A stretch of DNA of 41,769 nt from Acidobacteriota bacterium (GCA_027021395.1 JALUUK010000408.1:1-41769); one strand, 5' to 3'; positions 17,278 through 40,348 are shown, numbered from the stretch's first letter. Numbers and translations: made by a program. Notes: a model not told the origin generated them from the sequence alone.

Positions 17278-17288
17278 CCGTTACCCTC

Positions 17289-17921: not shown

Positions 17922-17923
17922 CC

Positions 17924-18313
17924 TCAGTCCTCCTCGTCCCACCAGTCTGCGAAGCCGTCCGCATGCATCCGGACGTTCAAATCGATGAGGTCGCCTCGCT
18001 GATTGACGCCATAGAGGGTCGCCAACCAGCGGCCGTATTTGCCCTGCCGATCCTTTTCCGTGGTCACGTAGATCACCGGGCGGCCGCAAGCGTCGCGGGT
18101 CACAGCGTATTGCTCGATCAACTCTTCAAGATGCTCAGCAGCGGCCGTGCCGCGCGACTTTTGCTCGCCGCGTTTCTCCGGCGCGTCGATCCATTGCAGC
18201 CGCAGACGCAACCGCCGGAAGGAGTGAAACCCCTGATCCACGAGCACGTCCACCGTGTCGCCGTCAACGACTCGGAGCACCGAGGCGCGATAGTTGTAGA
18301 GCCGGACGGTCAC
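17924..18313 (-). CDS. Thermonuclease (SNase family), no signal peptide
   Basis: YRASVLRVVDGDTVDV, LRLQWIDAPE, GKYGRWLA. Confidence 0.88.
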   Translation of the reverse strand: MTVRLYNYRASVLRVVDGDTVDVLVDQGFHSFRRLRLRLQWIDAPEKRGEQKSRGTAAAEHLEELIEQYAVTRDACGRPVIYVTTEKDRQGKYGRWLATLYGVNQRGDLIDLNVRMHADGFADWWDEED

Positions 18314-18612
18314 TGCTGATCCTCCGAAACAAAATGCACGTGGACGCTGACCCGAGCGTCTTCGCGTCCATCGTTTGTGACGGTCCAGCCTCGCTGCGGG
18401 ACCGAACTCAGCCTCTGTGCGTTCAGCTCCAATGGTCGCGTGGCCGTCACTTGCCAATGCTTTTCACCGGCCTCCAGCGTCACTTCGGCGGTCGTCAGCA
18501 CAAGCAAATACTGCAGAGCGGACACCTCCTCGCCGAAATCCAGCGTTGAGCTTTCGCCTTTCGGCAGCTTGATGTCCACAACTTTGCTGCGAATCGGGAT
18601 GTATTCGGTCAT
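18310..18612 (-). CDS. Hypothetical protein
   Basis: AAGGA RBS; GTGA coupling to the nuclease gene. Confidence 0.6.
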   Translation of the reverse strand: MTEYIPIRSKVVDIKLPKGESSTLDFGEEVSALQYLLVLTTAEVTLEAGEKHWQVTATRPLELNAQRLSSVPQRGWTVTNDGREDARVSVHVHFVSEDQQ

Positions 18613-18630
18613 GGTTCTGTTCCTTCCCAG

Positions 18631-18822
18631 GTTGTGGTCGGGTCTCCCGACCCGATCACCATTGCGACCGGAGGTCTCCCTCCCGTTGTGATCAGGTCTC
18701 CTGACCCGATCACTACTGCGACCGCAGGTCTCCAGTGGGTTTTCTGGATGGGAGACCTTCGGTCCGTCGGGTGGGACGGTCTGGAGACCGCCCCACAACA
18801 GGGTGGGCAGTGCCCACCCTAC
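18631..18822. repeat. Composite palindromic element (three GGAGACC...CACAAC units plus GTAG REP)
   Basis: Two tandem units, one inverted unit, then GGGTGGGCAGTGCCCACCCTAC. Confidence 0.9.
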
Positions 18823-18832
18823 TGGAGGCGGA

Positions 18833-19231
18833 TCAGCCGGCTCGCTGCCGCCAGAGCAGGCGCAGCCGGCACCACCACCCGTGGACTCCACTGCCGTCGC
18901 GCTGTGGCTCCTGGAGTACCTCGAAGCCCAGAAACGTGGTCCGTGGATAATTGGCCGCGACACCCGCGACGGTCTGGGTCAACGTGCCGGTCAATTGGCC
19001 GGCTTGATTCGTCAGTGTGTTCAGGGCGGTACGCAGAGCATCCAAGTCGGCGTATCCGGAGAGCAGCAGCTCGGCCGTCAGGTCCCGCCCATGGATCGCG
19101 CCGACCAAATGATGTTCGCCTCGCACGGCGGGGTAAGTATGCACGACCAGGTCGACCTCCGCCGGCCGCGCCGGCCGGACCGGGCTGTCCAGTCCGTTTT
19201 CGTAGGTGTATCCGTCGTGCGATAGGGTCAT
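18833..19231 (-). CDS. Putative distal tail protein
   Basis: First gene after the tape measure; 132 aa. Confidence 0.55.
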   Translation of the reverse strand: MTLSHDGYTYENGLDSPVRPARPAEVDLVVHTYPAVRGEHHLVGAIHGRDLTAELLLSGYADLDALRTALNTLTNQAGQLTGTLTQTVAGVAANYPRTTFLGFEVLQEPQRDGSGVHGWWCRLRLLWRQRAG

Positions 19232-19256
19232 GGCCTGCTGTGCTTCCTTTGGGCAC

Positions 19257-19505
19257 CCGCCGGCGTGAGCCGGCGGCTGCGGCTTCTCATTGGTGGGCGG
19301 TGCCCACCCTACCCGCTACCCGCCGGCTCACGCCGGCGGTTCGCCCCGGTTGTGGTCGGGTCTCCCGACCCGATCACCATTGCGACCGCAGGTCTCCAGT
19401 GGGTTGTCTGGTTGGGAGACCTTCGGTCCATCGGGTGGGACGGTCTGGAGACCGCCCCACAACTTCGGTCCCTGGGGTGGGCCGGTCCGGAGACCGGCCC
19501 ACAAC
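19257..19505. repeat. Intergenic mosaic of three palindrome families
   Basis: CCGCCGGCGTGAGCCGGCGG copies at 19257-19276 and 19316-19344 (inverted); GTAG REP at 19292-19312; GGAGACC units at 19349-19505. Confidence 0.9.
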
Positions 19506-19521
19506 CGTGGCTGATGCCACG

Positions 19522-21054
19522 TTACTTGGCGGCGCCGCTCAGCATCGCCGCCGCCGGCCTTTTGGCACGTGTCGGTCCGCGTGTGTTGTTTTCCGTCTTG
19601 CGTGTGTTCTCGGCGATCTCCTGGAGCGCCTTCTGCTGAGCTTGAGCCTGTCGGCGCATCTCGGCCAACTCCTCATCACTGGGTATGTAGGCCTGCGAAG
19701 TGCGGGCTCGCATGCGGACGGCCTGCGAATACGCATTGTCGCCGAATCCGAACCACAGGGCCTGTTCCGGCGTTGCGCCAAACCCGCGCGCGAGTTTGTA
19801 GCCAGCCATCTTGATGTAATACTGGGCCGGGGCCATTCCGATCTCTTTGGCGACGTTTTTCATTTCCTGCTCGTAAACGTCCGCCAAGTCGTCTTGGGCT
19901 GCGGAGGCGAGCCGGCCGCGCCCGGCGGCTCGACGGGCGGCGGCCGTCCGGCCGCTAAAGGCCTCGCGCACATCTTTGTCGAATTCGCCCGCTTTTTGTT
20001 TGGCGATCATCTCTTCGAATATATCGCTCCCCTTAATCATCTTGCGTGAGGCAGCAACGGTCCGATCGCCGAACAGCGTGGCCAAAATCGCCGCGCGGTC
20101 TTTTTCTGGGGCCTGCTCGTAACCTGCTCGGAGGCGTTTCAGGACTTCGCCGATCGATTCACCAACCAGGTCGACGTCTTCCGGTCGCAGACCGAGCTGT
20201 TGCAGAGCCTTGACTTTGGCCTTTTCCTTGCCGGCGGTCTGCAGCCTAAGAATGAAATTCCGCAAGCCGGTCGTGGATTCCTCGGCGGGGAAGGATTGCC
20301 GCGCGAGGGCCAGCATCGCGAGCTGCTCCTCGATGGACAGAGCCCCCTCAAACGTGGCGGCCTGCTTGGCGAATTGCTGCAGGTCGGCGACTTGGATGTT
20401 GGTCGACTTGAACAAGGCCTGTACGCCGCGGCCGACGCGACGCAGATTCTGCGCGTTGAGCTCCAACCCTTGCGACGACATGTAAGAGGCGATGGCCTGC
20501 GCCATTTCGCGGGGCTCGACGTCTTTGCCCGTCAGCGTCGAAGCCCCCATCAGTTTCAAGAACTCGCGCAAGGATTCACCAGTGGCCTCCTCGACGGAGA
20601 AACCGCTCGACACCAACTGCCTGGCAGCGGCCTCTGCGCTCACGACGGGCGTTTCGCTGATGGGGAGCTGCAGAGCGATCTGCTCGATGCGTTTCTGCGC
20701 CTTTTCGGCCTCCAGTCCCCGCAGTCCGGCCTGGACGCGGAATTTGCGGAAGGCCTCATCCATCGTCTTACCTGCTTCGACAGCTTCGTGCTGCCATTCC
20801 TGGCTGGCCTGCATGACCAGATGCAGCGCTCCGACCACACCGCCTGCTCCGATCAGCCCTTCGACGAGTGAGCGGGCCGAGCTGAGTGCGCCGGCGAACA
20901 GGCCACGCGTGGCTTGCTGAGTGCGCAAACCAGCTTGCGCCGTGCGCTGCAGGGCCAGATTCGTGCGCAATATCTGCTGCTGCGTGCGCTGGAAGTCCCG
21001 CAGCACGTCGCTCATGTCGGAGGTGATGGTAAAAACGGCCTCGCCGGCAGGCAT
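19522..21054 (-). CDS. Tail tape measure protein
   Basis: Ala/Gln-rich helical; TGLRNFILRL...KALQQLGL...LFG pattern of TP901-type tape measures; follows the chaperone. Confidence 0.85.
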   Translation of the reverse strand: MPAGEAVFTITSDMSDVLRDFQRTQQQILRTNLALQRTAQAGLRTQQATRGLFAGALSSARSLVEGLIGAGGVVGALHLVMQASQEWQHEAVEAGKTMDEAFRKFRVQAGLRGLEAEKAQKRIEQIALQLPISETPVVSAEAAARQLVSSGFSVEEATGESLREFLKLMGASTLTGKDVEPREMAQAIASYMSSQGLELNAQNLRRVGRGVQALFKSTNIQVADLQQFAKQAATFEGALSIEEQLAMLALARQSFPAEESTTGLRNFILRLQTAGKEKAKVKALQQLGLRPEDVDLVGESIGEVLKRLRAGYEQAPEKDRAAILATLFGDRTVAASRKMIKGSDIFEEMIAKQKAGEFDKDVREAFSGRTAAARRAAGRGRLASAAQDDLADVYEQEMKNVAKEIGMAPAQYYIKMAGYKLARGFGATPEQALWFGFGDNAYSQAVRMRARTSQAYIPSDEELAEMRRQAQAQQKALQEIAENTRKTENNTRGPTRAKRPAAAMLSGAAK

Positions 21055-21133
21055 TCCTTTCGTCCTAAGAAATGAAGGTCAAACCAGGTCGGTGCGTGAT
21101 CGCCGAGAAGCCCCCGTGACCACGCCAGGAAAA

Positions 21134-21856
21134 TCAAGTACCGGGGGTGCTGGCTTCCCCCTTTTTTTCGAGCTCGTCCTCCACTTGTTGAATCTCGGGC
21201 TGCTGAATCGTCGCCAGAGCCACGAGCGGCGCCGTCTCACTGTTGAGCAGCCTGAGATGGCTGACGACTTCAGGCGTAAGCCGGTAGTTGAATCGCAGTG
21301 CTTGGACCAAGTAATCCCACCAATCTGCCCACGGCAGGTCGATTCGGCCTTCGCCCAGCACCAAGCGATACAACTCCTGGCTCTTCCGCCAGAAGGACCG
21401 GTAATCCTCTTGCAATTCTTCGCGGACCTGACCGGTTTCCGGGTCGATCCGGAAGTCCCGGGGCAGCATGGCGGCCGCCGCGACGACCCAGCGGTTGCCA
21501 TCCCCGAGCCGGACCCAATAGCCGGAATGCGCGACCTGCAGGCCCGGGAGGGCGGCGGGACGCTGCAAGTCGCGCGGTCCGGGCGGCGACTGGCGCCAAA
21601 CCCCGACCCAATATCGGCCTCGCTCACCCGTCCCCGGCTGGGGCGCAGCGGGAATCCATTCTTGTTCGTCGGGAACGAACCCAAACCTCGGCTGCTCACC
21701 TTTGGGCTGCCAAAACACCATCGCGCCGGGTCCCCCGGTCGGTCCCTCGGAACACTCCACCCACTGCGCACCCTCCACGTGGTCGGCGAGGCCGGCTTCG
21801 ACCAGTAGCTGCGGGTTTTGCCCCCGTTTGTCGGGCAGGAAGATTTGATAGTGCAT
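21134..21856 (-). CDS. Tail assembly chaperone (gpG-like) with -1 frameshift site
   Basis: Between tail tube and tape measure; in-frame A_AAA_AAG near the 3' end; AAGGAG RBS. Confidence 0.7.
   Translation of the reverse strand: MHYQIFLPDKRGQNPQLLVEAGLADHVEGAQWVECSEGPTGGPGAMVFWQPKGEQPRFGFVPDEQEWIPAAPQPGTGERGRYWVGVWRQSPPGPRDLQRPAALPGLQVAHSGYWVRLGDGNRWVVAAAAMLPRDFRIDPETGQVREELQEDYRSFWRKSQELYRLVLGEGRIDLPWADWWDYLVQALRFNYRLTPEVVSHLRLLNSETAPLVALATIQQPEIQQVEDELEKKGEASTPGT
21161..21167 (-). promoter_or_regulatory. Slippery heptamer A AAA AAG (programmed -1 frameshift)
   Basis: Reads GAA AAA AAG GGG; the -1 frame stays open to TGA at 21012-21014. Confidence 0.7.
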
Positions 21857-21871
21857 CGAGTCTCCTTTTTG

Positions 21872-21979
21872 CTGCCGGCTTACGCCGGCGGGGTCTCTGG
21901 TTGGGAGACCTTCGGGCCGTCGGGTGGGACGGTCCGGAGACCGCCCCACAACAGGCAGGGTGGGCGGTGCCCACCCTAC
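21872..21979. repeat. Composite palindromic element
   Basis: CTGCCGGCTTACGCCGGCGG, one GGAGACC unit (21904-21952) and a GTAG REP containing the tail-tube stop codon. Confidence 0.9.
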
Positions 21980-22860
21980 GTGATGGCGACGCCGCTAGCG
22001 GCTGTTAACGTCTTGCCTTCGATCTGCAGCGACAAGGTCGCGGTGTCCCCTTCGTCGCCAGCCGCCGCGTCGATCAGTGTCAGTCCGGCGCCGAAGCTGA
22101 ACTTGCAGTGGCTCAAATTACCGTCCGCCTCGTACGTTCCCCCGTCCGCGCGCTTCCGGAAATACACCTCCAACGAAGTCAGGGCGGCTGCGATCTCGTG
22201 CAGGGAATCGAGCAACGTCAAATCGCGCGTCGTGATCGTGATCCGTGGTCGGAAAGGCGTTTCCAGGCTGGCAAAATCGGGATAAGGTCCGCCGCCACTG
22301 CGGGTCAAATTCAAACGCAGTCCGGTGTCAATATTCACGTCGGCCACTTCCCCGATCGTCGTGCCGTTGATTTTGACGGGACCGAGACCGAAGGCGCCGG
22401 CGAAGGACGACGCTGCCAGGGATTGATTCACATTCGCAGCCACCGGTGAGGTCAGCCCATCGCTGGAGAACAGGGCCAAATCGATGGACGCCTCCGCGTT
22501 GTCTGTCCCGCGAGCGCGGAAGCTACTGGCGATCGCCAGCCCATTGGTCGCTGTCAGGGTCAAGTGCGCTGTGCCGCTGGCCCAGGTCCCGCCGGGCTGG
22601 CGCTTGATCCAGGGGATCGTGATCGAACCGGCCGAGATGTAGAGTCCCGACGAGACGGGGATCCCGCTGATGACGCCAGCGATGTCCTCGGTATCGATCG
22701 TCACGCGTGGTTCGGCCCGCACCAGAGCTACCAGACTGTCGGCCGTGTCGCCGGGTGCGGCCGCCCGCAGTTCCTGGGCCGATGGGTTGTACCGAGTCCG
22801 CGTGATCTGGCGGATAGTGACCGATCCAATCGTCGGGTCGTAGATGCTAAATTGAGTCAT
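21976..22860 (-). CDS. Putative major tail (tube) protein
   Basis: Size, Thr/Ser/Gly-rich beta composition, position, AAGGAG RBS. Confidence 0.65.
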   Translation of the reverse strand: MTQFSIYDPTIGSVTIRQITRTRYNPSAQELRAAAPGDTADSLVALVRAEPRVTIDTEDIAGVISGIPVSSGLYISAGSITIPWIKRQPGGTWASGTAHLTLTATNGLAIASSFRARGTDNAEASIDLALFSSDGLTSPVAANVNQSLAASSFAGAFGLGPVKINGTTIGEVADVNIDTGLRLNLTRSGGGPYPDFASLETPFRPRITITTRDLTLLDSLHEIAAALTSLEVYFRKRADGGTYEADGNLSHCKFSFGAGLTLIDAAAGDEGDTATLSLQIEGKTLTAASGVAIT

Positions 22861-22871
22861 GGCTGGCTCCT

Positions 22872-23342
22872 TTACAGTCGCGCCACGGTCTGGCTCCGCC
22901 GGCGTTTCTGATTCGCCGGGTTATTGATCTCTCGAACGACGTAATCCCGCCGGAATTCGGCCAAGGCGAGGACTTCATCGCGTGTGATTGCGGTCAATTC
23001 TCGTTTGCGATCCGCGTTCAAGGGGAAATAGGCTCGCAACCGCAGTCGGCCCCGCTTGGGCGTCGCTGTCACGGTCCGATGGGCCGCGTCGAGAATATGG
23101 GTGCGCAGCCGGCCGGTGCGATAGAGCGGACGCCATTGCGGATAGCGTTTTTTGACCTGGCGAACGTACTTGCTGCTGCGGCGGAGGTACCCGTAGCGAG
23201 TGGCCGCGCCGCGGGCAAAATGCCGCGGCAGGTGGCGCTGCGCGTGCTGGTCGAGAGTCGCTCGCATCGAGTCGCGGGCGATGCGGTTCAGCGTCCGCTG
23301 CGACACCAGGCTGGTTTCGACTTTGATCGCGATCTGTGGCAT
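22872..23342 (-). CDS. Putative neck/tail-completion protein
   Basis: Basic; PLYRTGRLR resembles the LxxTGxLR motif of virion morphogenesis proteins. Confidence 0.6.
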   Translation of the reverse strand: MPQIAIKVETSLVSQRTLNRIARDSMRATLDQHAQRHLPRHFARGAATRYGYLRRSSKYVRQVKKRYPQWRPLYRTGRLRTHILDAAHRTVTATPKRGRLRLRAYFPLNADRKRELTAITRDEVLALAEFRRDYVVREINNPANQKRRRSQTVARL

Positions 23343-23355
23343 GGCGTGCGGCTCG

Positions 23356-23844
23356 TTACGGCGTCAGTACGAGGCCCGTGGTGTAGATTTCCATTTCTCC
23401 GGCCACATATTCGATGTTCGTGTCGCTGATCAGAACGTCTTCATTGGCGGTGAACTCGATGTCGGTGATCTCCAGGACTCCCGGCGTCCGGGCCATGACC
23501 AGACTGAGGATGTCGGCGATAATTTGCCCGGCCTGGTTCTGGAATCCGAGGATTTTTTCGTGGTCGCTGGCTGCCTGGTTGTCGGGCAGGAATTCCAGCA
23601 AGGCGGCCAGGCCCCCATTGGATTGGAAACTGTTGCCGTCGCGCGTCCAGCGGTAACTGCGTCCGAAGCCGAGCAGGATGCGAGGGAAGTCGCTGCCGCT
23701 GCTGGCGAGCAGCACGCGGGCCTTGGCGCTGGCCTCGTTCGGATTCTGTGCGTCGACAATCTGTTGCCAGGTGCTCGATTTGGCGAACGTGTCGCGCAAG
23801 TGATCGAAGATCGTGCTCAAGGGGCCGGTGGGTGTCACAGGCAT
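23356..23844 (-). CDS. Putative tail terminator/neck protein
   Basis: Position, acidic composition, AGGAG RBS. Confidence 0.5.
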   Translation of the reverse strand: MPVTPTGPLSTIFDHLRDTFAKSSTWQQIVDAQNPNEASAKARVLLASSGSDFPRILLGFGRSYRWTRDGNSFQSNGGLAALLEFLPDNQAASDHEKILGFQNQAGQIIADILSLVMARTPGVLEITDIEFTANEDVLISDTNIEYVAGEMEIYTTGLVLTP

Positions 23845-23853
23845 TGCGATCTC

Positions 23854-24201
23854 CTAGGGTCGGCGCGGCCGTCGCATGATCTCGCCTCGCATGATGAGCT
23901 TGACGCGTCTCCAGCGGCCATCCAGTTCGCCGATCGCCTCGACTTGCCAGACCTCGCCGGCGATCACCCACGTGTCCCGGAGTCCCACGGTTTGGGTCGC
24001 CGGAATCCACAAGTTGCCTCGGCGGACGTTGTCTCGGCCGTGGGTCGTATCCAGTCGGGGCTCGCCCTCGGCCCAGAGACAGCCAGCGACGGATTCGGCC
24101 TGCTGTGCGTTGCCATTCGGCCGGCGGGTGACCGTTCCGCCGAGGTACTCGGCGATCAGGTCCGAAGCGCCGGAGAAGAATTGGTCGTGCCGACTGCTCA
24201 T
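23854..24201 (-). CDS. Putative head-tail joining (FII-like) protein
   Basis: Follows the capsid gene; DTWVIAGEVWQV beta motif. Confidence 0.6.
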   Translation of the reverse strand: MSSRHDQFFSGASDLIAEYLGGTVTRRPNGNAQQAESVAGCLWAEGEPRLDTTHGRDNVRRGNLWIPATQTVGLRDTWVIAGEVWQVEAIGELDGRWRRVKLIMRGEIMRRPRRP

Positions 24202-24280
24202 GGCCTGCTGATGCGGCCTGCCGGCAGCATCCCGCCGCCGGCAGGCCATCCGAACGGGAAAAACGGAGGCAGATCGATGG

Positions 24281-25249
24281 TCACGTGATGTTCGACAGCA
24301 GATACCCGGCTTCGACGTAGAGCAGCTTCTCGTCTACGTCGTGGCGCACGCGGATCACGTCGCTCCGGATCGACTCCTCCCGGTACGACTCGATCACGCC
24401 ATTGGGCGAGCTACCGTCGCCAGCCCAATGGAAGGTGCGGCCCAAGCAGGGCTCCCGGAAGTCGTTCGTCCGGGCCACGCGGCAGACCAGGGCGTAACTA
24501 TCGGACCAGATCGAGGCCAGTGACGCACTCTGCCCTTCGTTGGCCGTGTTCTTGACGGCGTTCGCGACGATGATTTCGTCCAGGTCGAACGCCTGAGCCA
24601 GAGCCGCCTCCGTGATGGCACCAGCCCGTACGTCGACGAAACCTTGGTACTTCACGCGGTCGATGATCTGCGCGCAGTTGCGCAGGTGCCGAAACACCTT
24701 GCGGCTGATGACCAGGGCGTTGGGCCAGAGGCCCGAGTTGGACCAGACGGCGTTGACGGCGGTCTCGACGTCGTCCAGCGGCGTCGCGCTGGCGTGGGTG
24801 GACCACTTGGTGCCGACCGCGCTGGTCTTTCCGCTGAAGGTGCTGGTGCTGAACAGCAGGCTGGCGACCCGTTGCTCGGCGTTGCGCATCACCACGTCGA
24901 AGGCCCGGCGGGCCGCGATCAGCTCAGCGTCGAAATAGTTCGCATACATCGCGGCCTCGCGGTCGTCGACCGGTTCTTCGGCTCCGTACTCCTGACAGGC
25001 GAAGCTGTCGGTGGTGAACTTCCACTGACCGCGGCTATAGCCGGCCCCGGGGGCGCGCCGCACCTCGCGGTTCTGCAGCAACTGCTCAATCGGGATTTTG
25101 CCGAACACTCCGCTCTGGCTGGCGACTTCGACGACGGGGAAGACCCGGCTCGCGATGTAGCCGGCCCGCTGCATCTCCAGATCGAATTCTTCGAACGACT
25201 CGCTCAGATCAGGTCGGAGCGTTGCGAGAGACGAGGAAGGACTTGGCAT
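24281..25249 (-). CDS. Major capsid protein
   Basis: 322 aa after the decoration gene; YIASRVFPVVEV, RAPG, PNALVIS; AAGGAG RBS. Confidence 0.88.
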   Translation of the reverse strand: MPSPSSSLATLRPDLSESFEEFDLEMQRAGYIASRVFPVVEVASQSGVFGKIPIEQLLQNREVRRAPGAGYSRGQWKFTTDSFACQEYGAEEPVDDREAAMYANYFDAELIAARRAFDVVMRNAEQRVASLLFSTSTFSGKTSAVGTKWSTHASATPLDDVETAVNAVWSNSGLWPNALVISRKVFRHLRNCAQIIDRVKYQGFVDVRAGAITEAALAQAFDLDEIIVANAVKNTANEGQSASLASIWSDSYALVCRVARTNDFREPCLGRTFHWAGDGSSPNGVIESYREESIRSDVIRVRHDVDEKLLYVEAGYLLSNIT

Positions 25250-25306
25250 CAGTGATTCTCCTTTTTGAAACCTCAGCGATTACGCGTCGGATCGACCAAC
25301 CAGGGA

Positions 25307-25666
25307 TCAGGCGTAGATCGGCTGAATCTCGATGATGTCGCCGTCGGCGCTGGCGGCCTCCAGCGCGACGCCTCGGAAGTGCGAGCCGGCGGCTTTGGTC
25401 GCGCTGACCTTGCCGTTAGCGGCCGTGTAGACGTAGGCGCCCTGGCTGATCGCACCAGCGGCGATAACTTTTTGCGTGGGCGAGTTGAGCAGCCGGACGG
25501 GGATCACGTCGCCGTCGGCGAAAGCCTGCCGCTCGGCGACGCCGATGTCTGCATCGTAGATTCCCGCGACGGCCAGCTTTCCGCTGGTGATCTTCACACG
25601 GGCGTACTGGCTGATGGCCCCGCCCGCTTCGAACGTGACACAGAAGCTATCGTGAGTTTGGGACAT
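25307..25666 (-). CDS. Capsid decoration/cement protein (DUF2190-like)
   Basis: AGAISQGAYVY..ANGKV...GVALEAASADGDIIEI. Confidence 0.8.
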   Translation of the reverse strand: MSQTHDSFCVTFEAGGAISQYARVKITSGKLAVAGIYDADIGVAERQAFADGDVIPVRLLNSPTQKVIAAGAISQGAYVYTAANGKVSATKAAGSHFRGVALEAASADGDIIEIQPIYA

Positions 25667-25759
25667 GTCGCACTCCTTCAATTGGTGCAGGCTTTGGCGA
25701 TCTCGATGGTTCTCGGCGGCGTCGACCTCGGCCGGCGTCAGCCGGCCGGCCGCCGAGGC

Positions 25760-26221
25760 TCAGTTGGCGTTGGCTTCGGCGATCAAGGCCTCCCGAAGCT
25801 CGGGGTTCTCTCGGGCCACGAGCTGGACGGCTTTGAATCGGGGCAGCCCTTCGGCGACCTTCGCGCGGACCAGCTCGCGCCATTGGTCTCGGACCGATCC
25901 GGAGCCGGCGGCGATAGAATTGGGCGTGCCATCGGCCAGAGCTTCTGTCCCGGGCGAGGCGGTGGCTTTCAAAGTCTCCAGCTCGGCTCGGAGTTTCTCG
26001 GCTGCGGCGCGCGCTTCGTCGCGCTCCGCGCGAGCGGTCTGCAGATCCGTCTGGAGTTCTTCCAGCCGCAGAGCTTGCCAAGCCAGGAACTCTTCGCGAG
26101 CCTTTTCGACGCTCAGCCCTCGCTCGATCCACTCCAGCAAAAGTTGGCTGTCGGCGCCCGGGCACGCCCCTTTCAGCTCGTTCAGCGTCGCGGCCCGGGG
26201 TTCGTTTCGTTCGTCACTCAC
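25760..26221 (-). CDS. Nested in-frame scaffold protein (lambda Nu3-like)
   Basis: Internal GAGGAGG RBS followed by GTG (VSDERNEP...); coiled coil. Confidence 0.6.
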   Translation of the reverse strand: MSDERNEPRAATLNELKGACPGADSQLLLEWIERGLSVEKAREEFLAWQALRLEELQTDLQTARAERDEARAAAEKLRAELETLKATASPGTEALADGTPNSIAAGSGSVRDQWRELVRAKVAEGLPRFKAVQLVARENPELREALIAEANAN

Positions 26222-27058
26222 CGTCGAACCTCCTCGATCAGATTGCGAGTCCACAAACCGTTGGAACGACGTCAGCACGGACTCGTAGGTGCCGACCTCG
26301 TCGATCAGTCCCAGCCGGCGGGCTTCGGCCGCCAGCCAGACGCGGCCGTCCGCCAAACGGTTCAATTGCTGCTCGGACACATTGCGTCCCCGGCGCACGG
26401 CCGCCAAGAAAAACTCGTTGTGTTCTTCGACCAAGCGCTGCCACTCCGCGAGCTGCTCGTCCGTGATCTCGGTGCCCGGCACCCCCGCGCCCTTGAAGCG
26501 GCCCGTCGTCAACAGGTGCACCTTGATGCCGGCGTCTTCAAACAGACCCGTCCAGTCCCAGACGACGGCATAAGTGCCGATCGAGCCGATCAGAGCCGGT
26601 TCGTTGGCCGCAATCCGATCGGCCTGGCTGGCGATCCAGTAGGCGGCGGAGGCCCCGAGGTCCTCGATGTAGGCCCAGACAGGCTTCCACTGTGCGGCGG
26701 CGGCGACGTCATCCGCGAGTTCCTTGGTCCCGTCGAACGCGCCACCGGGCGAGCTGATCCGCAGCAGAATGCCAGCGACCTGGTCGTCGGCGAGCGCTCG
26801 CCGCAGCCGGTCTCGCACGTCCACGGTCGACGTCCCGCGCCAGGGTTTCGCTTTTGCCAGCGGTCCTCGCAGTTCGAGGATCGCGATGGAGCCGGCACGC
26901 TCGAATGCGCCCGCACCGTCATCCTGCTGGGCCCGGTCGGACCAGAGGCGATCCCCTCTCAGACACGCCTCGATGGCCAACCGGGCCTGCTGCGGTGCGA
27001 CGGCCCAGACGGTTTCCGCCGCCCCGGCCGGTGCTTCAGTCCATCTCGTCTGCGGCAT
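25760..27058 (-). CDS. S49 (SppA/lambda gpC-like) head maturation protease with C-terminal scaffold
   Basis: ISSPGG, GASAAYWIASQAD, IGSIG, VRRGR, ADGRVWLAAEARRLGLIDEV. Confidence 0.92.
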   Translation of the reverse strand: MPQTRWTEAPAGAAETVWAVAPQQARLAIEACLRGDRLWSDRAQQDDGAGAFERAGSIAILELRGPLAKAKPWRGTSTVDVRDRLRRALADDQVAGILLRISSPGGAFDGTKELADDVAAAAQWKPVWAYIEDLGASAAYWIASQADRIAANEPALIGSIGTYAVVWDWTGLFEDAGIKVHLLTTGRFKGAGVPGTEITDEQLAEWQRLVEEHNEFFLAAVRRGRNVSEQQLNRLADGRVWLAAEARRLGLIDEVGTYESVLTSFQRFVDSQSDRGGSTVSDERNEPRAATLNELKGACPGADSQLLLEWIERGLSVEKAREEFLAWQALRLEELQTDLQTARAERDEARAAAEKLRAELETLKATASPGTEALADGTPNSIAAGSGSVRDQWRELVRAKVAEGLPRFKAVQLVARENPELREALIAEANAN

Positions 27059-28619
27059 CGTTTACTCCGTTTGGGTTGGCTTCGTCGCCGGAAAGCGCCA
27101 ATCGGATTCCCTGCGCCGTGGGCGTCGGGATAAGGTCACGCCAATGGACATCGACGCCAAGCTCGTCGGACAACTGGCGTGCGGCTTCAGCCGCCAGCCG
27201 AATGGCAAACGCTCGGTCTTCGACGATCTCGCGCGCCAGAACGACCCAATCGGTGCCCCGCTTCGCGGCGAAGCGCCGGGGACTGGTCATACCGTTGGCC
27301 AGCTCCAGCAAGTTCGCCGTGGCGTCGTGCACCGGCTGGATGTACGGCCAACCGACGGGATTCCATCGGTGACGCATCAGGTCGGCGACGCTTTTCGTAC
27401 GCGCGAATGCCTGCAGCTCGGGATCATTCAGCAGCCATTGGCGGACTTTCCAGCGATAGACCTCGGCGTGGAACTGGCTGGCAAACCAAGACTGGATCTT
27501 GCCATACGTGGCGCGGGCTTGATCGATGACGTTGCGATAGCTGCTGAAGTTGGCCTCGCGCGCATCCAAGAGCAGCACGATCAGCGGCAGGTCCAGATTG
27601 ACGGCCAGGTAAGTCAGTAACAGGCGAACGTGCTCGAAGTACGGTTCGCTCGGGATGCTCGGTGAGAACCCGCTGAGCTTCTCGCCCGGCTCGCCTTGCA
27701 GGATCATTCCTGGATGCAGGCTGGTCTGAGTGAAGCCTGTGCCGTCCGCCCAGGTCGAGCTGGTCTGCTCGCCCAGTTCCGAGCCGTCGCTGCTGGCCAT
27801 CGAGCCCAATTCCCGTTCGCGGAAGAACGCCACACAGGCCGACACCTGGGCCTTGACGAGCATGGCGAAATCCAAGTCGTCGCGCATGCCCAGGACGGTC
27901 GTAACCGGTGCCAGGGCCGTGATGCCGCGTGTCTGGCTGAATCGCTCGGGATTGTAGACGTGAAAGACCAGGCGATTGCCATCGGCGTCGACAGCCGGGA
28001 CGCGGCGGACGTCGGCGACGCGCACCTGCTCGTTCGGGTCGACCGGTTCCCGCGTGAAGGTGTACGCGACGGGCCGGGCTCGGTTATCAAGAATCACGCC
28101 GCAGACGCCGCGATCGCGACGGGCGCGGTCGGGCGTGCGGCAGCGGTGGGCTTCGAGCGTCTGCAAGGTTCCGTCCCGTAACGGCAAGGCGAAAAAGTCG
28201 CCGTCGATGACGACCCGGGCCAGGCCCAGATCGGCCATCTGCTCGAAGGTCAGTTTGCCGGCCGCGTGGCAAACGCTCGGCTGCGAAGACCACTCCTGCC
28301 ATCGCGAGCGCAGATGCTCGTCGACTTCCGGGTCCCCGGTGTCGGGATCGAGCTGCATCCCGCCCACGTTCACGTTGCACACGAGCCGGCGGACTGCCTG
28401 ACGGATCAGAGGTTCGTTCCGCTCGAAGTGCCGCGCCAGCTCGACCATGGTCAGGAACCAACGCTGGTTCCGAATGTGGTAATCCGCGCTCGCGCCGTTC
28501 ACAGGAAGAGAGACCTGCCGCAAGAAGCGGTTGGACCGGTAGCGAGCGGCGTCATATTCCGCCCGGACTTCGGCCATTTGGCGGCAGATGGACGGTGGTC
28601 GTGGTCGTCGGTCAGGCAT
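27036..28619 (-). CDS. Portal protein, lambda family
   Basis: ARHFERN, PVAY, SQTRGIT, NFSSYR, WPYIQPVHD; TGATG coupling. Confidence 0.92.
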   Translation of the reverse strand: MPDRRPRPPSICRQMAEVRAEYDAARYRSNRFLRQVSLPVNGASADYHIRNQRWFLTMVELARHFERNEPLIRQAVRRLVCNVNVGGMQLDPDTGDPEVDEHLRSRWQEWSSQPSVCHAAGKLTFEQMADLGLARVVIDGDFFALPLRDGTLQTLEAHRCRTPDRARRDRGVCGVILDNRARPVAYTFTREPVDPNEQVRVADVRRVPAVDADGNRLVFHVYNPERFSQTRGITALAPVTTVLGMRDDLDFAMLVKAQVSACVAFFRERELGSMASSDGSELGEQTSSTWADGTGFTQTSLHPGMILQGEPGEKLSGFSPSIPSEPYFEHVRLLLTYLAVNLDLPLIVLLLDAREANFSSYRNVIDQARATYGKIQSWFASQFHAEVYRWKVRQWLLNDPELQAFARTKSVADLMRHRWNPVGWPYIQPVHDATANLLELANGMTSPRRFAAKRGTDWVVLAREIVEDRAFAIRLAAEAARQLSDELGVDVHWRDLIPTPTAQGIRLALSGDEANPNGVNDAADEMD

Positions 28620-28918
28620 CAGTCGCGAAACGTCTGAAAGGAGGCATGGATGACACGGCGCGAGCGCGACGCGGCGGTCGTATCGTGATTGCGGAGCCAT
28701 TCTTTGGCGGCCAAAAGCTCCTTGCGGATCAGGTCGGGGCTGAGAGCGACCTGATTTCCCCCCTTGCCGGTCAAACGAGGCATCATGCGCAGCAATAGCC
28801 GGCAGGCGGTGATGAAGACCTTCGCCTTCGCCGGCGAGTTGTCCTCCTCGTAGGAGGCATTGTCGGCGTAGGCCGCTTCGATGTCCGCCAAACTGCTCTG
28901 AGAATTCAGCGTGGCCAT
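28619..28918 (-). CDS. gpW-like head completion protein
   Basis: Small ORF between TerL and portal, as in lambda. Confidence 0.5.
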   Translation of the reverse strand: MATLNSQSSLADIEAAYADNASYEEDNSPAKAKVFITACRLLLRMMPRLTGKGGNQVALSPDLIRKELLAAKEWLRNHDTTAASRSRRVIHASFQTFRD

Positions 28919-29020
28919 ACCGTTAAGTTCGGGTCAGCCCCGACTGCGCGCGAAGGGCAGTTCAGGCGAACCGAACGCGGTTTTGTCGGATCGCTCGGGC
29001 GCGACCGGACGGCTCGGGCG

Positions 29021-29308
29021 CTAGATCCGGCGGCTGACTTGCTCGAAAATCCACCGCACGACATCGTTCGCATGCACAACGGGCCGACCGTCCGCAAAGG
29101 CGGCGCCGGAAGCGAGCAGACCTGCGTAGACCCGCCGAAAGGCGTCCAAGGAGGGGCCGTTGTCGATCTTCAGGTCGATTCGACCGAGCGACTGCGCCAC
29201 GTACGTCCGCTGCTCCGGCTCCGCGACCGGCAAGGCCAGCTCCACCTCGCTGTTGCGGACGGCTCCGCCGGTCGACGTCTTCTTGGATTGCGTCTTTTTC
29301 GCCATCAC
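29021..29308 (-). CDS. Hypothetical protein
   Basis: AGGAG RBS directly after the terL stop. Confidence 0.65.
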   Translation of the reverse strand: MMAKKTQSKKTSTGGAVRNSEVELALPVAEPEQRTYVAQSLGRIDLKIDNGPSLDAFRRVYAGLLASGAAFADGRPVVHANDVVRWIFEQVSRRI

Positions 29309-29313
29309 TGCTC

Positions 29314-31287
29314 CTATCGATCCGTAGCCAAAAAAGGCCGACCATCTGGGGTCGTGAGCGTGCGAGGAACCACCCGCTGGCGGCGTCTGCGTGGGACCGG
29401 CTTACGCGACATCTCGCGGTTCCAATCCCGGCCGTTGTTCTTGTAGTGCCAGGCCATCACGACTGCATAGCGCAAGGCGTCGCGAAACTCGTTGTCCCCC
29501 CGCTTCCGCCAGTGACCGTTTTCGTCCAAATAGTCGTTGCAGAGCTGCTGCGCGAAGTCGATGCCCGTGACCGGCTGGCCGTGAAAGACTTCGGCCGGCA
29601 CGCTGAACCAATCCCGATCCGTGCGCTTCACCAGGCCGGTGATGCGGTCCTCGATCCATTGCTGCGTGCGCGTCGTGTTGGGCTCGATCAGGTCGTACTG
29701 GCCGATCTTGATCCGGGCTGCCACGAGCTTCGGCGGCACCCCGACCCGCTGCATCGCCGGCCGGTACATCTCAATAAAGTTCCCGGCAAAGAAAGGCCGG
29801 CTTGGGTCCGTCGAGGAGCCTTTCACGGGCCAACAATTGGGCAACTCACGGCAGAACGAATAAACCGCTTCGGTGAAGGCGCCCGAGTCGATTCCGATCC
29901 GGACCGGCCGCAGCGCAGGACCGCCATCCGCATGGGGGTACTCCCAGCGGGCGCAGGTGCGCCGCATCTCGTCCTTGCTCCACGCGATTCCGTAGTCGAC
30001 CAGTTGGGACCGAGCGTACTGTCCCCAGGCGATGACCACCCAGTAGAAGATCAGCTCCTCGCCGATCCGGCCCACGTCCGCCCCGACTGTCAGGAACCGC
30101 GACCACTCCGGACAGACTCCCAGCGGTTCATCCACGGCCAGGCGTTCCGCCAACTCGTGAGGCTCGACCGACCGCGGCGCTGGGTCCCACGGCTCGGCGA
30201 GCGTACCGGTGACGAACTCGCGCAACGAGTCGGCGTTGGCCTTGGCCGCGAGAAACTCCGCGACCAATGCGCCCCAGCCGGGGATGACCAAACTGTATAG
30301 CGACGAAATCCCGTCAAAGACGACGATGTCCGGACCGATTTTCGGCCGCCCCAGCACGCGCCCCGTCTTGGCCAACCGCTGGCCTTCCGCGATCCACTTG
30401 CCGGCACGGATCATGCCCGGACGATCCGCATCTGTGATCTTGCAGCCGCTCTGACAGCGATAATAGGCCGTGGCAACGGCTTCTGTAGCGCCGGCCTTGT
30501 CGTCCCACTTCACGCCCGGGCCTTTACCGCGATCGCCCCAAACCAGGCGCTGGTATTTCCCGCAGTGCGGACATCGCACGAAGAAATACCGCCGCTGCGC
30601 GGCTGCCGAGTCGGCGAAGCTGCTGATCGCGCAATCGCCGACTGCTTCCGGCTTGCCCTCCAGGATGTACTTGCTGTCATACGGAAACAGCCTTCCTCGC
30701 TGCAGGAATCGCCGGATCGCGTTCGGCGACCAAAGCCCGGCTTCGTTGACGACCCCGTAGCAGGCCGGATACCCCGCCAGACTGGCGCGGCTGCCAGCGT
30801 ACGCCTTGCGAATCAACCCTGTCTCCAGGCGGACGCCTAGTTTCAGGTTCTGGCGGTGCGGCGGCAAAAGGATCGGCTGGCCGGCTCGCAGCCGATGCGC
30901 CATCGGGATCACCAAGTTCTGCACCAGATCATCGACCGAGGCTTCGTCCGCCGACGCGACCGCACAAGGCCGCCCCGTCGTGACCGCCCAATACAGTAGA
31001 CAGGCGACGGCGGTCAGAGTCTTCGCCGACCGAGTCGCCCAGCGTAGCACGATTACGCGCACCATGGGATCGTCCACGGCCTCCAACACCCCGCGCACAT
31101 GAGGGAACATCGCAGCATCGAACGGCCCCGGCGTCTCGCACACGTCCGGGATAACGACATGCGCGGGAACCCACTCGGCGCACAGCACCCTTGGCGGCGG
31201 TCGCCATACCCGCCAACTGGCACGCAGCAGCTCGTTTGTCGCGACCCTCCTCTGCTGCTCACGAGACACTATCCTTCGTCTGGCCAC
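29314..31287 (-). CDS. Terminase large subunit (lambda GpA family)
   Basis: PGPF..FPH, RSAKT Walker A-like, FVRCPHCG, TLAEPW, TVGADV, IDSG, PVKG, NEFRDALRYA. Confidence 0.92.
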   Translation of the reverse strand: MARRRIVSREQQRRVATNELLRASWRVWRPPPRVLCAEWVPAHVVIPDVCETPGPFDAAMFPHVRGVLEAVDDPMVRVIVLRWATRSAKTLTAVACLLYWAVTTGRPCAVASADEASVDDLVQNLVIPMAHRLRAGQPILLPPHRQNLKLGVRLETGLIRKAYAGSRASLAGYPACYGVVNEAGLWSPNAIRRFLQRGRLFPYDSKYILEGKPEAVGDCAISSFADSAAAQRRYFFVRCPHCGKYQRLVWGDRGKGPGVKWDDKAGATEAVATAYYRCQSGCKITDADRPGMIRAGKWIAEGQRLAKTGRVLGRPKIGPDIVVFDGISSLYSLVIPGWGALVAEFLAAKANADSLREFVTGTLAEPWDPAPRSVEPHELAERLAVDEPLGVCPEWSRFLTVGADVGRIGEELIFYWVVIAWGQYARSQLVDYGIAWSKDEMRRTCARWEYPHADGGPALRPVRIGIDSGAFTEAVYSFCRELPNCWPVKGSSTDPSRPFFAGNFIEMYRPAMQRVGVPPKLVAARIKIGQYDLIEPNTTRTQQWIEDRITGLVKRTDRDWFSVPAEVFHGQPVTGIDFAQQLCNDYLDENGHWRKRGDNEFRDALRYAVVMAWHYKNNGRDWNREMSRKPVPRRRRQRVVPRTLTTPDGRPFLATDR

Positions 31288-35663: not shown

Positions 35664-35669
35664 GGAGAC

Positions 35670-38235: not shown

Positions 38236-38366
38236 GCATCACAGTGCAGCGCGAGACGAGCCTGTTGAGGCAGCGAGTCGACTTCACGATCTCTGGACGC
38301 CGGGAGAACGTGCTCACATTTCTCCAGTGCCTGCAGCGTTTCGTCGACGAGTGGAACGAGGAATGA
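38091..38366 (+). CDS. Hypothetical protein
   Basis: GAGGTGA RBS; stop adjacent to the next start. Confidence 0.55.
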   Translation: MCEESRRAAESARPAGSGITTYRSWIEGPRFAGRWDWALRDMARTLGLSITVQRETSLLRQRVDFTISGRRENVLTFLQCLQRFVDEWNEE

Positions 38367-38367
38367 G

Positions 38368-38910
38368 ATGCGGGATTTCACCGACTACGAGCTTTGGGTG
38401 GTCCGCCAAGCTGAGGGAATCGTCCGTATGCTGCAGGAGGCGGCTCAAATCGCACAGGCCACCATACCGCCCCTTGGCAAGACCTGCAGCCGTCGCGAAC
38501 TGGAGCTGTACCGGGAGATCATCGACGCCCGCCGCGCCGCCATAGAAGCAAGAGACCGCCTTGGCCAAGCGATCGACCTATATCGTACGCCGGCGATGGC
38601 CGGACCTTTTCCGAGAAAGGAGGAGCACGCAATGGGAGAGACCGTTCGTTATTCGATAGGTGTGGATAGCCCAATCACTCCACAGGAACCTCTGCCGGCG
38701 CTGCCGGAGATTCCTCGCGGCGCCTTGGTGGTGGTCGAGGGGTGGGCGCCGATCTGGCGGTACGCGATGGCGCTTCACCGGCTCCACGGGTCGCCGGCCG
38801 GTGCCATCGCGGTCTATGACCCGCGTCTCGGAGCCGTCGTTGTCCAGAGCCACACGCCCGCATACGCGGAAGGGGACGTGCTGGACTTCCCGGAGGATAG
38901 GGCGCAATGA
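38368..38910 (+). CDS. Helical N-terminal region in frame with a Csx3 domain (fusion or read-through ORF)
   Basis: GAGG RBS; no stop before the internal Csx3 start. Confidence 0.5.
   Translation: MRDFTDYELWVVRQAEGIVRMLQEAAQIAQATIPPLGKTCSRRELELYREIIDARRAAIEARDRLGQAIDLYRTPAMAGPFPRKEEHAMGETVRYSIGVDSPITPQEPLPALPEIPRGALVVVEGWAPIWRYAMALHRLHGSPAGAIAVYDPRLGAVVVQSHTPAYAEGDVLDFPEDRAQ
38632..38910 (+). CDS. csx3: Csx3/Crn3 CRISPR-associated cyclic oligoadenylate ring nuclease
   Basis: VVVEGWAPIWRYAMALHRLHGSPAGAIAVYDPRLGAVVVQSH..EGDV matches the Csx3 signature; own AGGAGGAG RBS. Confidence 0.88.
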   Translation: MGETVRYSIGVDSPITPQEPLPALPEIPRGALVVVEGWAPIWRYAMALHRLHGSPAGAIAVYDPRLGAVVVQSHTPAYAEGDVLDFPEDRAQ

Positions 38911-39128
38911 CCAATGCAAGGAGCCGGTACGTCGCGGTATGTCCCAAGTGCCGATGGAAGGGATACAGGGTTGAACCGGAATGTGAGTGCTACGACCGCG
39001 TGTGCCACGTGTGGGCACCGGGCCTTGGATGTCCGCGGCAAGCGAAACGACCATGCCCGCACTGCGGTGCGGAAGTGATTGCGTACCCGGTGCGGTTCAG
39101 ACGGAGGATAGGGGGCAATGACAGGTGA
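38907..39128 (+). CDS. Small Cys-rich zinc-ribbon protein
   Basis: CPKC...CPHCG; ATGA coupling. Confidence 0.6.
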   Translation: MTNARSRYVAVCPKCRWKGYRVEPECECYDRVCHVWAPGLGCPRQAKRPCPHCGAEVIAYPVRFRRRIGGNDR

Positions 39129-39423
39129 TACAGACGCTACACTGCCGTCCCAGCATCTCTGGGACGGCATCGACGCCTTTCCCGGGGATGTAGACGAGAG
39201 CGACATCCTCGCGCAGCCGCTTCTGCGCGATCTCGACGATTTAGACACTGTCCCTCGCTGGGTCGCGCGCTTCGTCCTGCGCGACCTGCGGGAGCTGCGA
39301 GCGATCTGTGAGGCGGCGGGGATCGAGCTGGACGTATCACCGTGCCGCGAGTGCAATCGCGAAACGGTCTGTCTGCCCGAGGGACTGCTGCCGATCTGCG
39401 TGGACTGCCGGAGGGCGGAATGA
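39118..39423 (+). CDS. Hypothetical protein with CxxC pair
   Basis: CREC...CVDC; coupled to neighbouring genes. Confidence 0.65.
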   Translation: MTGDTDATLPSQHLWDGIDAFPGDVDESDILAQPLLRDLDDLDTVPRWVARFVLRDLRELRAICEAAGIELDVSPCRECNRETVCLPEGLLPICVDCRRAE

Positions 39424-39776
39424 CCGTCGTGCCATTGAATTTGCAGCGATGGATCGAAGGCCGGCTGGAGAACAGCGGCTGGGACCACATATTGACGGTC
39501 GTGCCCGAAAGCGGAGGCGGGGTTCGTCGGCGCATCCGTGTTTGGCTGTCGCACGATGGCCTCCGGCTGGCCATTGTCTGGCCGCACGCGACGCGGGTCA
39601 TCGACCTAACGGTCGCCCCGGAGCATAACCCGGAGCAGGGCGAGTACCACAATGGGGCGATGGGTCTATCAGTGCTGATCACCCGACATGGGAGACAGGA
39701 GGCAGACGATGGCGAACAAGCAGAAAACGCCGGGAAAGAAAGAGACGGCGAGCAAAATCTTGACGGAGCTGGGTGA
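39420..39776 (+). CDS. Hypothetical protein
   Basis: ATGA coupling; MTVVPLNLQRWIEGRLE... Confidence 0.55.
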   Translation: MTVVPLNLQRWIEGRLENSGWDHILTVVPESGGGVRRRIRVWLSHDGLRLAIVWPHATRVIDLTVAPEHNPEQGEYHNGAMGLSVLITRHGRQEADDGEQAENAGKERDGEQNLDGAG

Positions 39777-39927
39777 AGCTGAGTTGGACGTCACTCGGCT
39801 GGAGGACCGCATGGATGAGCTCCGCGAAGAGCTGAAGGACGCAAAGAAGGAGTACCAGGCCGCAGTCGCTCGTCTGCGGCTGCTCGTCCGGGACGTGGCG
39901 ACAGGCCAGATGCGACTGTTCGACTGA
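39709..39927 (+). CDS. Small coiled-coil protein ending in QMRLFD
   Basis: AGGAGG RBS; C-terminal QxxLF resembles a sliding-clamp-binding motif. Confidence 0.7.
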   Translation: MANKQKTPGKKETASKILTELGEAELDVTRLEDRMDELREELKDAKKEYQAAVARLRLLVRDVATGQMRLFD

Positions 39928-40045
39928 CAACAGGACGGACACGGACGGGTGAGGCTGGCTGAGGGATCGGCTGGCGGAACGGATTCGCCGGGCCGGGGTA
40001 CGGACGCCCCGGCCCGCATGGAGGCTCGGATCAGGAGGACGGGAA

Positions 40046-40264
40046 ATGCTAGTGCTCGGACGCCAGCAAGGCGATTCGATCGTGATTGATACGCCGCTGG
40101 GCGAGATCACTATCACCGTTGTGCGGCTGGGCCAGCGCTACGCTCGGATCGGCATCGAGGCCCCGGCCGGCTGGCCGATCGTCCGATCCGAGATTCGCGG
40201 CCGCGAGGAACCGGCAGACGACGAACTGCCGATGCGCGTGGCGTTGAGGAATCTGCGGACGTGA
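40046..40264 (+). CDS. csrA: Carbon storage regulator CsrA/RsmA
   Basis: MLVLGRQQGDSIVI...ITITVV...RIGIEAP...IVRSEI; AGGAGG RBS. Confidence 0.9.
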   Translation: MLVLGRQQGDSIVIDTPLGEITITVVRLGQRYARIGIEAPAGWPIVRSEIRGREEPADDELPMRVALRNLRT

Positions 40265-40340: not shown

Positions 40341-40348
40341 CAAGGAGG

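Follow-up and report, generated by a model that had tools for sequence, protein, structure and literature searches.

The contig JALUUK010000408.1, from an assembly named Acidobacteriota bacterium (GCA_027021395.1), raises the question of what use a phage might have for csx3 (crn3), a gene whose cellular relatives are mostly linked to type III CRISPR systems. The window, as we call the whole stretch of 41,769 nucleotides that was analysed, is one entire 41.8-kb contig of an 818-contig bin. An original prediction, made from the sequence, had taken one of its open reading frames (ORFs) for a stand-alone Csx3/Crn3 ring nuclease that degrades cyclic tetra-adenylate (cA4), captured from a host and turned against type III immunity. 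We find that the window is a temperate phage carrying csx3, one of a few Crn3 genes on viruses that together form a set not described before. By analogy with known ring nucleases, the phage Crn3 lineage is probably a cA4-degrading type III anti-CRISPR, a reading to which we assign a probability of roughly 0.6.

The csx3 gene and its product

The gene and its parts are as follows.

38618..38623, + strand: Shine-Dalgarno-like AGGAGG, 8 nucleotides 5' of the csx3 ATG, read directly
38632..38910, + strand: csx3/crn3 coding sequence (P0001), 92 amino acids, assigned by PF09620, TIGR02579, phmmer and Foldseek
38743..38745, + strand: TGG codon of tryptophan 38 (W38); the aligned residue in Archaeoglobus fulgidus Csx3 (AfCsx3) is R46, which contacts cA4
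38776..38853, + strand: catalytic codons placed by alignment, namely H49 (38776-38778), H52 (38785-38787), D63 (38818-38820), R65 (38824-38826) and H74 (38851-38853)

As read from the sequence, the gene begins with ATG at 38632 and ends with TGA at 38908-38910, and its product carries AVYDPRLGAVVVQSH at residues 60-74 and G-W-A-P-I-W at residues 37-42. The 92-amino-acid ORF, its coordinates, its own ribosome-binding site and both motifs are exactly as first claimed. An alternative in-frame ORF starts at 38368 and has 180 amino acids, with an extra part that has no counterpart in homologues. Because homologues share the opening M-G-E of the shorter version, we place the start at 38632.

A Pfam scan matches the product to PF09620 (Cas_csx3) at 79.5 bits against a cut-off of 21 (E=1.7e-22, model positions 4-77 of 78) and to no other Pfam family. 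The NCBIfam equivalog TIGR02579, "ring nuclease Crn3/Csx3", gives 65 bits against a cut-off of 55.4. When PDB sequences are searched with phmmer, only AfCsx3 is recovered (6vjg, 3wzi, 3wzg, 3wzh and 6yud, E of about 4e-13; the next match has E=0.11), and the identity to AfCsx3 is about 35% across the whole domain. An AlphaFold2 model was built from 22 sequences, with a predicted local distance difference test score of 74 and a predicted template-modelling score of 0.65. Its top 13 Foldseek matches in PDB (E<=0.001) are all AfCsx3 chains, ranks 1-10 having template-modelling scores of 0.66-0.69 at probability 1.00, and the best match to any other protein reaches only E=0.16. Judged by hidden Markov models (HMMs), sequence and predicted fold, the window protein is a genuine Csx3/Crn3. 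The original call therefore stands on Pfam, NCBIfam and phmmer matches that are all above threshold or significant, and the HMM search and structure prediction that had been proposed as checks both match Csx3.

The five residues H49, H52, D63, R65 and H74 align with identical residues in AfCsx3 (H57, H60, D69, R71 and H80) and are invariant in 119-120 of 120 database homologues, these being the best of 486 and 66-88% identical to the window protein. In AfCsx3, H60A and D69A are described as abolishing cA4 cleavage, and R71A and H80A as strongly lowering activity (PMC7371418). In the same source, each cA4 is held between two successive dimers, one contributing its D69 face and the other its H60 face, and Mn2+ is required (PMC7371418). 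Homo-oligomerisation of the window protein would follow from this homology.

A temperate phage genome without cas genes

The genes that identify the window as a phage, and the neighbours of csx3, are listed here in order of position.

4047-4988, + strand: serine recombinase (PF00239, 106 bits; phrog_95), at the opposite end of the + strand block
5190-5651, + strand: SNase-like nuclease (phrog_452)
15703-17277, - strand: tail-fibre-like protein (PHROGs)
19522-21054, - strand: tape measure protein (PHROGs)
24281-25249, - strand: major capsid protein (PHROGs)
25307-25681, - strand: scaffold/decoration protein (PHROGs)
25760-27058, - strand: head protease (PHROGs)
27036-28700, - strand: portal protein (PHROGs)
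29314-31287, - strand: terminase large subunit, GpA-type, lambda-type (P0122; PHROGs, PF05876/PF20454)
35598-35933, + strand: helix-turn-helix (HTH) regulator of Cro/CI type, upstream of the integrase gene
35930-36376, + strand: MarR-like winged-helix protein, between the HTH and integrase genes, 69% identical in amino acids to the product of 748-1194 in the metagenome contig L092
36536..37714, + strand: tyrosine integrase (phrog_1, E=1.7e-16; Phage_integrase Pfam match sub-threshold), 0.9 kb upstream of csx3
38907..39128, + strand: Cys-rich, zinc-ribbon-like ORF of 73 amino acids (zinc-ribbon Pfam matches weak and sub-threshold)
39342..39776, + strand: ORF of unassigned function, without a match to any Pfam family
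40046..40264, + strand: CsrA-like regulator (PF02599, 53.5 bits; phrog_9500), in a co-directional gene string with csx3

The structural and packaging module spans 15703..31287 on the - strand, with PHROGs E-values from 1e-5 to 2e-85, and the + strand also encodes a DUF6800 protein and several small ORFs. The ORFs of the window that were searched with Pfam and PHROGs include no cas genes. A k-mer array finder detects no CRISPR array in the window, Rfam gives no match there (CRISPR repeat families included), and no tRNA or housekeeping genes are recognised. These empty searches bear out the earlier statement that the window lacks type III cas genes and a CRISPR array.

The ATG of the Cys-rich ORF overlaps the csx3 stop codon (ATGA, 38907-38910), an overlap that is also present in L092. 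This gene packing suggests that csx3 may lie in an operon, as had been claimed. A promoter and terminator scan gave 1 promoter-like site where 1.5 were expected, none close to csx3.

Positions 1-306 of the contig match 40891-41196 at 96.7%, with the first 100 nucleotides identical, as judged by pairwise alignment and self-BLAST, and 674-896 match 41312-41534 at 88%, an indel lying between the two homologous end segments. The simplest reading of this homology is a circular or terminally redundant genome of ~40.9 kb that was assembled once around and on into a strain variant. The contig has no exact terminal repeat, and its circularity is putative. Loose ends of Logan contigs at 41353 and 41534, which continue as 716 and 897, were considered as a circular junction and rejected, since identical stretches allow cross-mapping. 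A bin contig of 4,470 bp (C35) is a third variant of window positions 39935-41757. The end variants and C35 together suggest that the sample contained related phages in a mosaic population.

In one Logan contig, 36510 is connected to 37741, so that 1,230 nucleotides corresponding nearly exactly to the integrase gene are missing; its shorter side is 22 nucleotides, which makes this observation weak. The integrase looks like an exchangeable cassette, with L092 having a different one (28% amino acid identity over 254 amino acids) at the same place.

Could csx3 instead have come from a cellular type III locus, on a contig that is chimeric or has a host flank? The bin is fragmented, with contamination of 6.9%, and Logan unitigs break near csx3, at 36450/36481 and 38773/38868. 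However, csx3 lies between phage or mobile genes, the two ends of the contig are homologous, cas genes are absent, the depth of Logan contigs stays even (about 12-25) over 30000-41769, and the integrase-csx3 arrangement is repeated in the independent contig L092. We therefore consider a chimeric origin very improbable.

Three further observations concern the tail-gene region. Four same-strand copies of a repeat (~100-130 nucleotides, 88-96% identity) lie at 12114-12239, 18668-18822, 19333-19463 and 21890-21986. The stretch 10200-14662 on the - strand encodes a trypsin-like peptidase that contains a collagen-like repeat (10200-11363) and, at 12950-14662, a family-2 glycosyltransferase. Positions 1825-1937 of the bin contig C799, which also bears a CRISPR array, match 13380-13492 of the window at 80%.

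Csx3 on other phage and viral contigs

The arrangement around csx3 recurs in L092, a 3,986-bp metagenome contig that carries HTH, MarR-like, integrase and csx3 genes and a conserved ORF in the window's order. Its Csx3 is 87% identical to that of the window, and its homologue of the ORF at 39342-39776 is 66% identical (tblastn). In L092, too, the stop codon of csx3 is overlapped by a Cys-rich ORF, which shows no detectable homology to the one in the window. Over 86 codons, the two csx3 genes differ by 0.41 synonymous substitutions per synonymous site (dS) and 0.072 nonsynonymous substitutions per nonsynonymous site (dN), giving a dN/dS of 0.18. This ratio and the higher identity of Csx3 indicate purifying selection on csx3 while its neighbours diverged more.

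In a third contig, L018, csx3 occupies the middle of a phage replication and lysogeny module that encodes two CI-like repressors, DnaB, a sliding clamp, thymidylate synthase, RusA, a RecE-like exonuclease, DnaC, SSB, a methyltransferase and an integrase; no type III genes were found at this locus. Viral ring nucleases are recognised by a viral or mobile location apart from cas genes, which is the location of csx3 in the window, L092 and L018. A tree was built from 87 Csx3 sequences and 95 columns, too few to resolve most forks; in it the window protein, P0002 and L092 cluster with a Shimodaira-Hasegawa-like approximate likelihood-ratio test value of 86, and L018 is their sister (87); no branch that holds the window sequence reaches a support of 95.

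Csx3 is also encoded by 12 distinct viral contigs in IMG/VR, all over the Pfam threshold and all with arginine at the position of AfCsx3 R46. On 10 of these, NCBIfam finds no Cas families in 76 flanking ORFs, and the neighbours of csx3 include primase, ribonucleotide reductase, RadC, ThyX, terminase and methyltransferase genes; Pfam finds no Cas families in 26 ORFs of the remaining two. The IMG/VR copies are scattered in the tree, two of them falling with Bacillota (96), which suggests several captures by viruses. Among 50,697 records of cultured phages, tblastn with P0001 gives no match at E<=0.01, though distant Csx3 proteins may escape a search with one query. No relative of the MarR-like neighbour is found in IMG/VR, and the best IMG/VR relative of the window terminase is 40% identical.

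Some viral and metagenomic Csx3 proteins depart from the usual form. One IMG/VR protein (L005, identical to L156, 7890-8198) scores 68.6 bits with the Pfam model and keeps the R46 equivalent, but has A-P-A in place of the D-P-R of the catalytic D69/R71 face, a pattern that we would expect of a non-cleaving binder. In another viral contig from IMG/VR (L155, 5335-6216) ~200 N-terminal amino acids without an assignment precede the Csx3 domain, and in a metagenome contig (L125, 161-1066) the domain is fused behind a P-loop NTPase-like region.

Cellular relatives and the probable origin of the phage gene

Scanning one genome per species yielded 122 cellular relatives, of which the best 80 were analysed. 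These are mostly from metagenome-assembled genomes (MAGs) of Planctomycetota and Methanotrichaceae and are 63-79% identical to the window protein. Within 10 kb of csx3, a Cas10-like gene is found at 48 of the 80 loci, a Csx7-type RAMP at 55, a CARF/Can2-like gene at 34 and any of these at 64, although the neighbour profiles were iterated from the bin's own type III proteins and may drift. Several of the 16 negative loci are contigs of ~2 kb. None of the 80 loci contains relatives of the window's phage proteins. Association with a type III locus is a habit of the family and not a requirement of the enzyme, and the window copy lacks it.

In two loci from Planctomycetota MAGs, L023 and L036, csx3 comes immediately after a type III-D operon. 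Their Csx3 proteins (72% and 73% identical to the window's, respectively) have the same length and the same E-G-R-A-P-I-W subfamily signature, except for the window's tryptophan. Whereas these genes follow Cas10, Csx10, Csx7 and Csx19 genes (in L023 also a Can2-like gene and a TIGR03986-type RAMP), the window csx3 follows a phage integrase gene. Because the relatives are mostly type III-linked cellular genes, capture of csx3 from a host is the natural reading, as originally proposed for this stand-alone copy.

A tryptophan at a cA4 contact

Against an anti-CRISPR role weigh the residue at position 38, the evidence for the host that is presented in the next section and, among the results above, the possible drift of the neighbour profiles, the support values of the tree, the contamination of the bin and the lack of an exact terminal repeat. 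In AfCsx3, cA4 is described as hydrogen-bonding with the side chains of S44, R46 and R71 (PMC7371418). Of the cA4 contacts on the D69 face (I22, S44, G45, R46 and I49), the window protein keeps three as I15, G37 and I41, and has E36 in place of S44 and W38 in place of R46. Glutamate at the S44 position is usual for the subfamily (116 of 120 homologues). Tryptophan at codon 38 occurs in none of ~265 relatives, in sets that partly overlap: the residue is arginine in 120/120 database homologues, 80/80 genome loci, 49/51 metagenome loci (the others having one lysine and one histidine) and 14/14 viral locus rows from 12 distinct contigs. The allele in the window may therefore be impaired.

The codon is CGG in L092, so that TGG represents a single C-to-T change. 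The change of the usual GR to GW by one nucleotide, pointed out in the original prediction, is thus real and is found only in the window sequence. A comparison of tryptophan and arginine in homologues and reads had also been suggested. For homologues the answer is near-uniform arginine, and reads are represented through Logan contigs. A Logan contig of run X1 spanning 36481-38773 has 0 differences from the window, TGG included, but it probably derives from the window's own reads and so gives no independent confirmation of TGG. The agreement does exclude a single-assembler artefact, as opposed to a sequencing or population effect. A second, minor strain is present in Logan contigs at 38760-38981, at a depth of 7.5-9.4.

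We expect, from the alignment, that W38 lowers cA4 affinity or activity without abolishing the fold. Might it have disabled cA4 binding in the window strain altogether, leaving csx3 a passenger that is neutral or nearing loss? The restriction of tryptophan to the window, its origin by a single transition relative to L092 and the reported hydrogen bond between cA4 and the side chain of R46 (PMC7371418) would fit such decay. However, W38 is the sole odd substitution, the catalytic residues, reading frame, ribosome-binding site and stop/start overlap are all intact, the dN/dS relative to L092 is low at the value given above, and loss of function by W38 is a guess. Decay of the gene is in our judgement unlikely, if worth serious consideration.

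The original prediction had also raised a cA4 sponge, in which W38 would turn the enzyme into a non-cleaving cA4 binder. Stacking of a tryptophan on adenine is conceivable, and phage sponges for cyclic nucleotides exist, among them one directed against the cyclic-oligonucleotide-based antiphage signalling system (anti-CBASS). Yet none of the five catalytic residues (H, H, D, R and H) is lost, and the substitution falls on a residue that contacts the ligand and is not catalytic, the reverse of the pattern expected of a sponge. For this reason we find weaker binding of cA4 more plausible, and a sponge seems hardly believable.

More speculatively, W38 could be an adaptive retuning instead of damage, for example toward another cyclic oligoadenylate, a closer stack with adenine or evasion of some counter-measure of the host, with the Crn3 proteins of the window, L092 and L018 forming a phage-resident lineage and a new family of type III anti-CRISPRs. 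We consider this improbable.

The putative host and its type III system

A potential target of the phage protein is encoded in the same bin. Positions 616-17363 of contig C68 (locus L011) contain a type III-D operon, then an array, then a type I-G set, with these components.

C68: CARF-like protein of 421 amino acids with a Card1-type endonuclease domain (Can2-like; PF09002, 33.9 bits; TIGR02710 weak)
C68: Cas10 of 569 amino acids, without an HD domain and with G-G-D-D present (PF22335, above cut-off)
C68, after Cas10: Csx10-like protein, Csx7-like protein, Csx19 and TIGR03986 RAMP (273 bits)
C68, ~10061-10314: degenerate four-repeat array
C68, after the array: type I-G cas3-cas8-cas7-cas5

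The NCBIfam models for Cmr2 and Csm1 give only sub-threshold matches in the bin, and Cas10 was identified through PF22335 and the GGDD motif. Can2 and Card1 are described as responding to cA4. By analogy, a cA4 ring nuclease would disarm systems of this type, with a cyclase-competent Cas10 and a Can2/Card1-type effector, which makes C68 a possible target. There is no csx3 or csx3 remnant beside this type III-D operon, unlike the orthologous loci L023 and L036.

The link from phage to host is weak and consists of co-binning. The 12 spacers or candidate stretches from arrays on C692, C799 and C68, which include one partial stretch at a contig end and one stretch after a last repeat, have no match in the window, giving only chance matches of 12-16 nucleotides. 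On the question, raised with the original prediction, of whether the host carries type III CRISPR, a type III-D system with a GGDD-containing Cas10 is present in the same bin, and its link to the phage is by binning, with no spacer match.

Taxonomic signals conflict. RpoB of the bin (contig C550) is 85% identical to named Acidobacteriota proteins. Terminase relatives at E<=1e-20 number 31 besides the window's own (32 in total), all with PF05876/PF20454, and the only one named for an organism belongs to a prophage of Gimesia fumaroli (Planctomycetota), at 37% identity. A search of 40 relatives of the bin recovered Csx3 in none of them. Tetranucleotide correlations with the bin mean are 0.89 for the window contig and 0.93 for C68, against a median of 0.986, making both outliers. 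Other outliers are C51, C112, C26 and C806, and some outlier contigs may be mis-binned. The closest type III-D operon to that of C68 is from a planctomycete (L023). From these conflicting signals of binning and taxonomy, the host may be an acidobacterium or a mis-binned planctomycete.

The absence of csx3 from the bin's type III-D locus, when orthologous loci possess it, is relevant to another explanation, in which csx3 protects the lysogen. Prophage Csx3 would act mainly in lysogeny, damping cA4 elicited by prophage transcripts or serving a type III-D host that lacks a ring nuclease, and the lysogen would avoid dormancy or death. The position of csx3 just downstream of the integrase gene, on the same strand in the regulatory and lysogeny region, is consistent with such a function. 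However, the host link is by binning, and mechanistically the enzyme would be the same, so only timing and beneficiary would differ. We regard an off-switch of this kind, used chiefly by lysogens, as quite unlikely.

Proposed role and comparison with known ring nucleases

Since the phage is temperate and has no cas genes, the likely use of its csx3 would be to clear host cA4. Csx3 dimers might stack head to tail around cA4, as in AfCsx3. Where two dimers adjoin, the face of one that bears H49/H52 (together with H74) and the face of the other that bears D63/R65 would form a shared Mn2+-dependent site at which cA4 is linearised. Csx3 made by the phage would remove cA4 produced by the host type III system, and CARF effectors such as Can2/Card1 nucleases would stay off during infection or lysogeny. 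We infer the cleavage of cA4, the suppression of immunity, the timing of expression and the identity of the host.

The closest characterized protein is AfCsx3 (Crn3, AF_1864; PDB 3WZI, 6VJG and 6YUD), which shares with the window protein its families, its predicted fold and the cleavage residues H57/H60/D69/R71/H80. The two differ in that R46 and S44 of AfCsx3 are W and E in the window, and in that AfCsx3 lies in a type III locus whereas the window copy is on a phage contig without cas genes.

In its proposed role, the window protein resembles AcrIII-1 (DUF1874), a viral ring nuclease that degrades cA4 and so removes the type III signal (PMC7371418, PMC12409355); both are small, virus-encoded and stand-alone, and by analogy both would degrade cA4. 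AcrIII-1 is described as having an unrelated fold and as metal-independent, with one dimer per cA4, in contrast to Crn3, in which two dimers sandwich cA4 and Mn2+ is used (PMC7371418, PMC12409355). The window protein does not belong to DUF1874 (AcrIII-1/Crn2), as Pfam gives only PF09620 and the structure comparison only Csx3.

Other rare viral ring nucleases show the same pattern in families other than Crn3. Csx16 and Csx20 are reported on phages (PMC12409355), rare Csx15 in prophage regions of IMG/VR (bioRxiv 10.64898/2026.10.26.761840) and a SAVED ring nuclease in a virus (PMC12751052). A 2025 survey of 28,114 phage genomes with HMMs for Crn1-3 and Csx15/16/20 reports 36 AcrIII-1, 4 Csx20 and 2 Csx16 (PMC12409355). 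Its main text names no Crn3 in phages, although its supplementary table may mention one (PMC12409355). More broadly, we found no statement about Crn3 on phages in the available passages of the ring-nuclease literature (PMC7371418, PMC12409355, PMC11014256, PMC13148439, PMC12830947 and bioRxiv 10.64898/2026.10.26.761840).

The csx3 gene of the window is a credible anti-type III candidate, with W38 probably a weakening change. Viral ring nucleases are a proven route to defeat type III CRISPR signalling, and those described from phages come from other families. The advance is incremental, in that the principle is already known and the activity of the phage protein is predicted from sequence. As a naturally occurring change of a cA4 contact, the R-to-W allele lends itself to a structure-function test of the R46 position. 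If the anti-CRISPR role is true, the Mn2+-dependent, tetramer-forming Crn3 fold would join the anti-CRISPR repertoire, and its presence on phages would represent repeated viral capture of a host off-switch.

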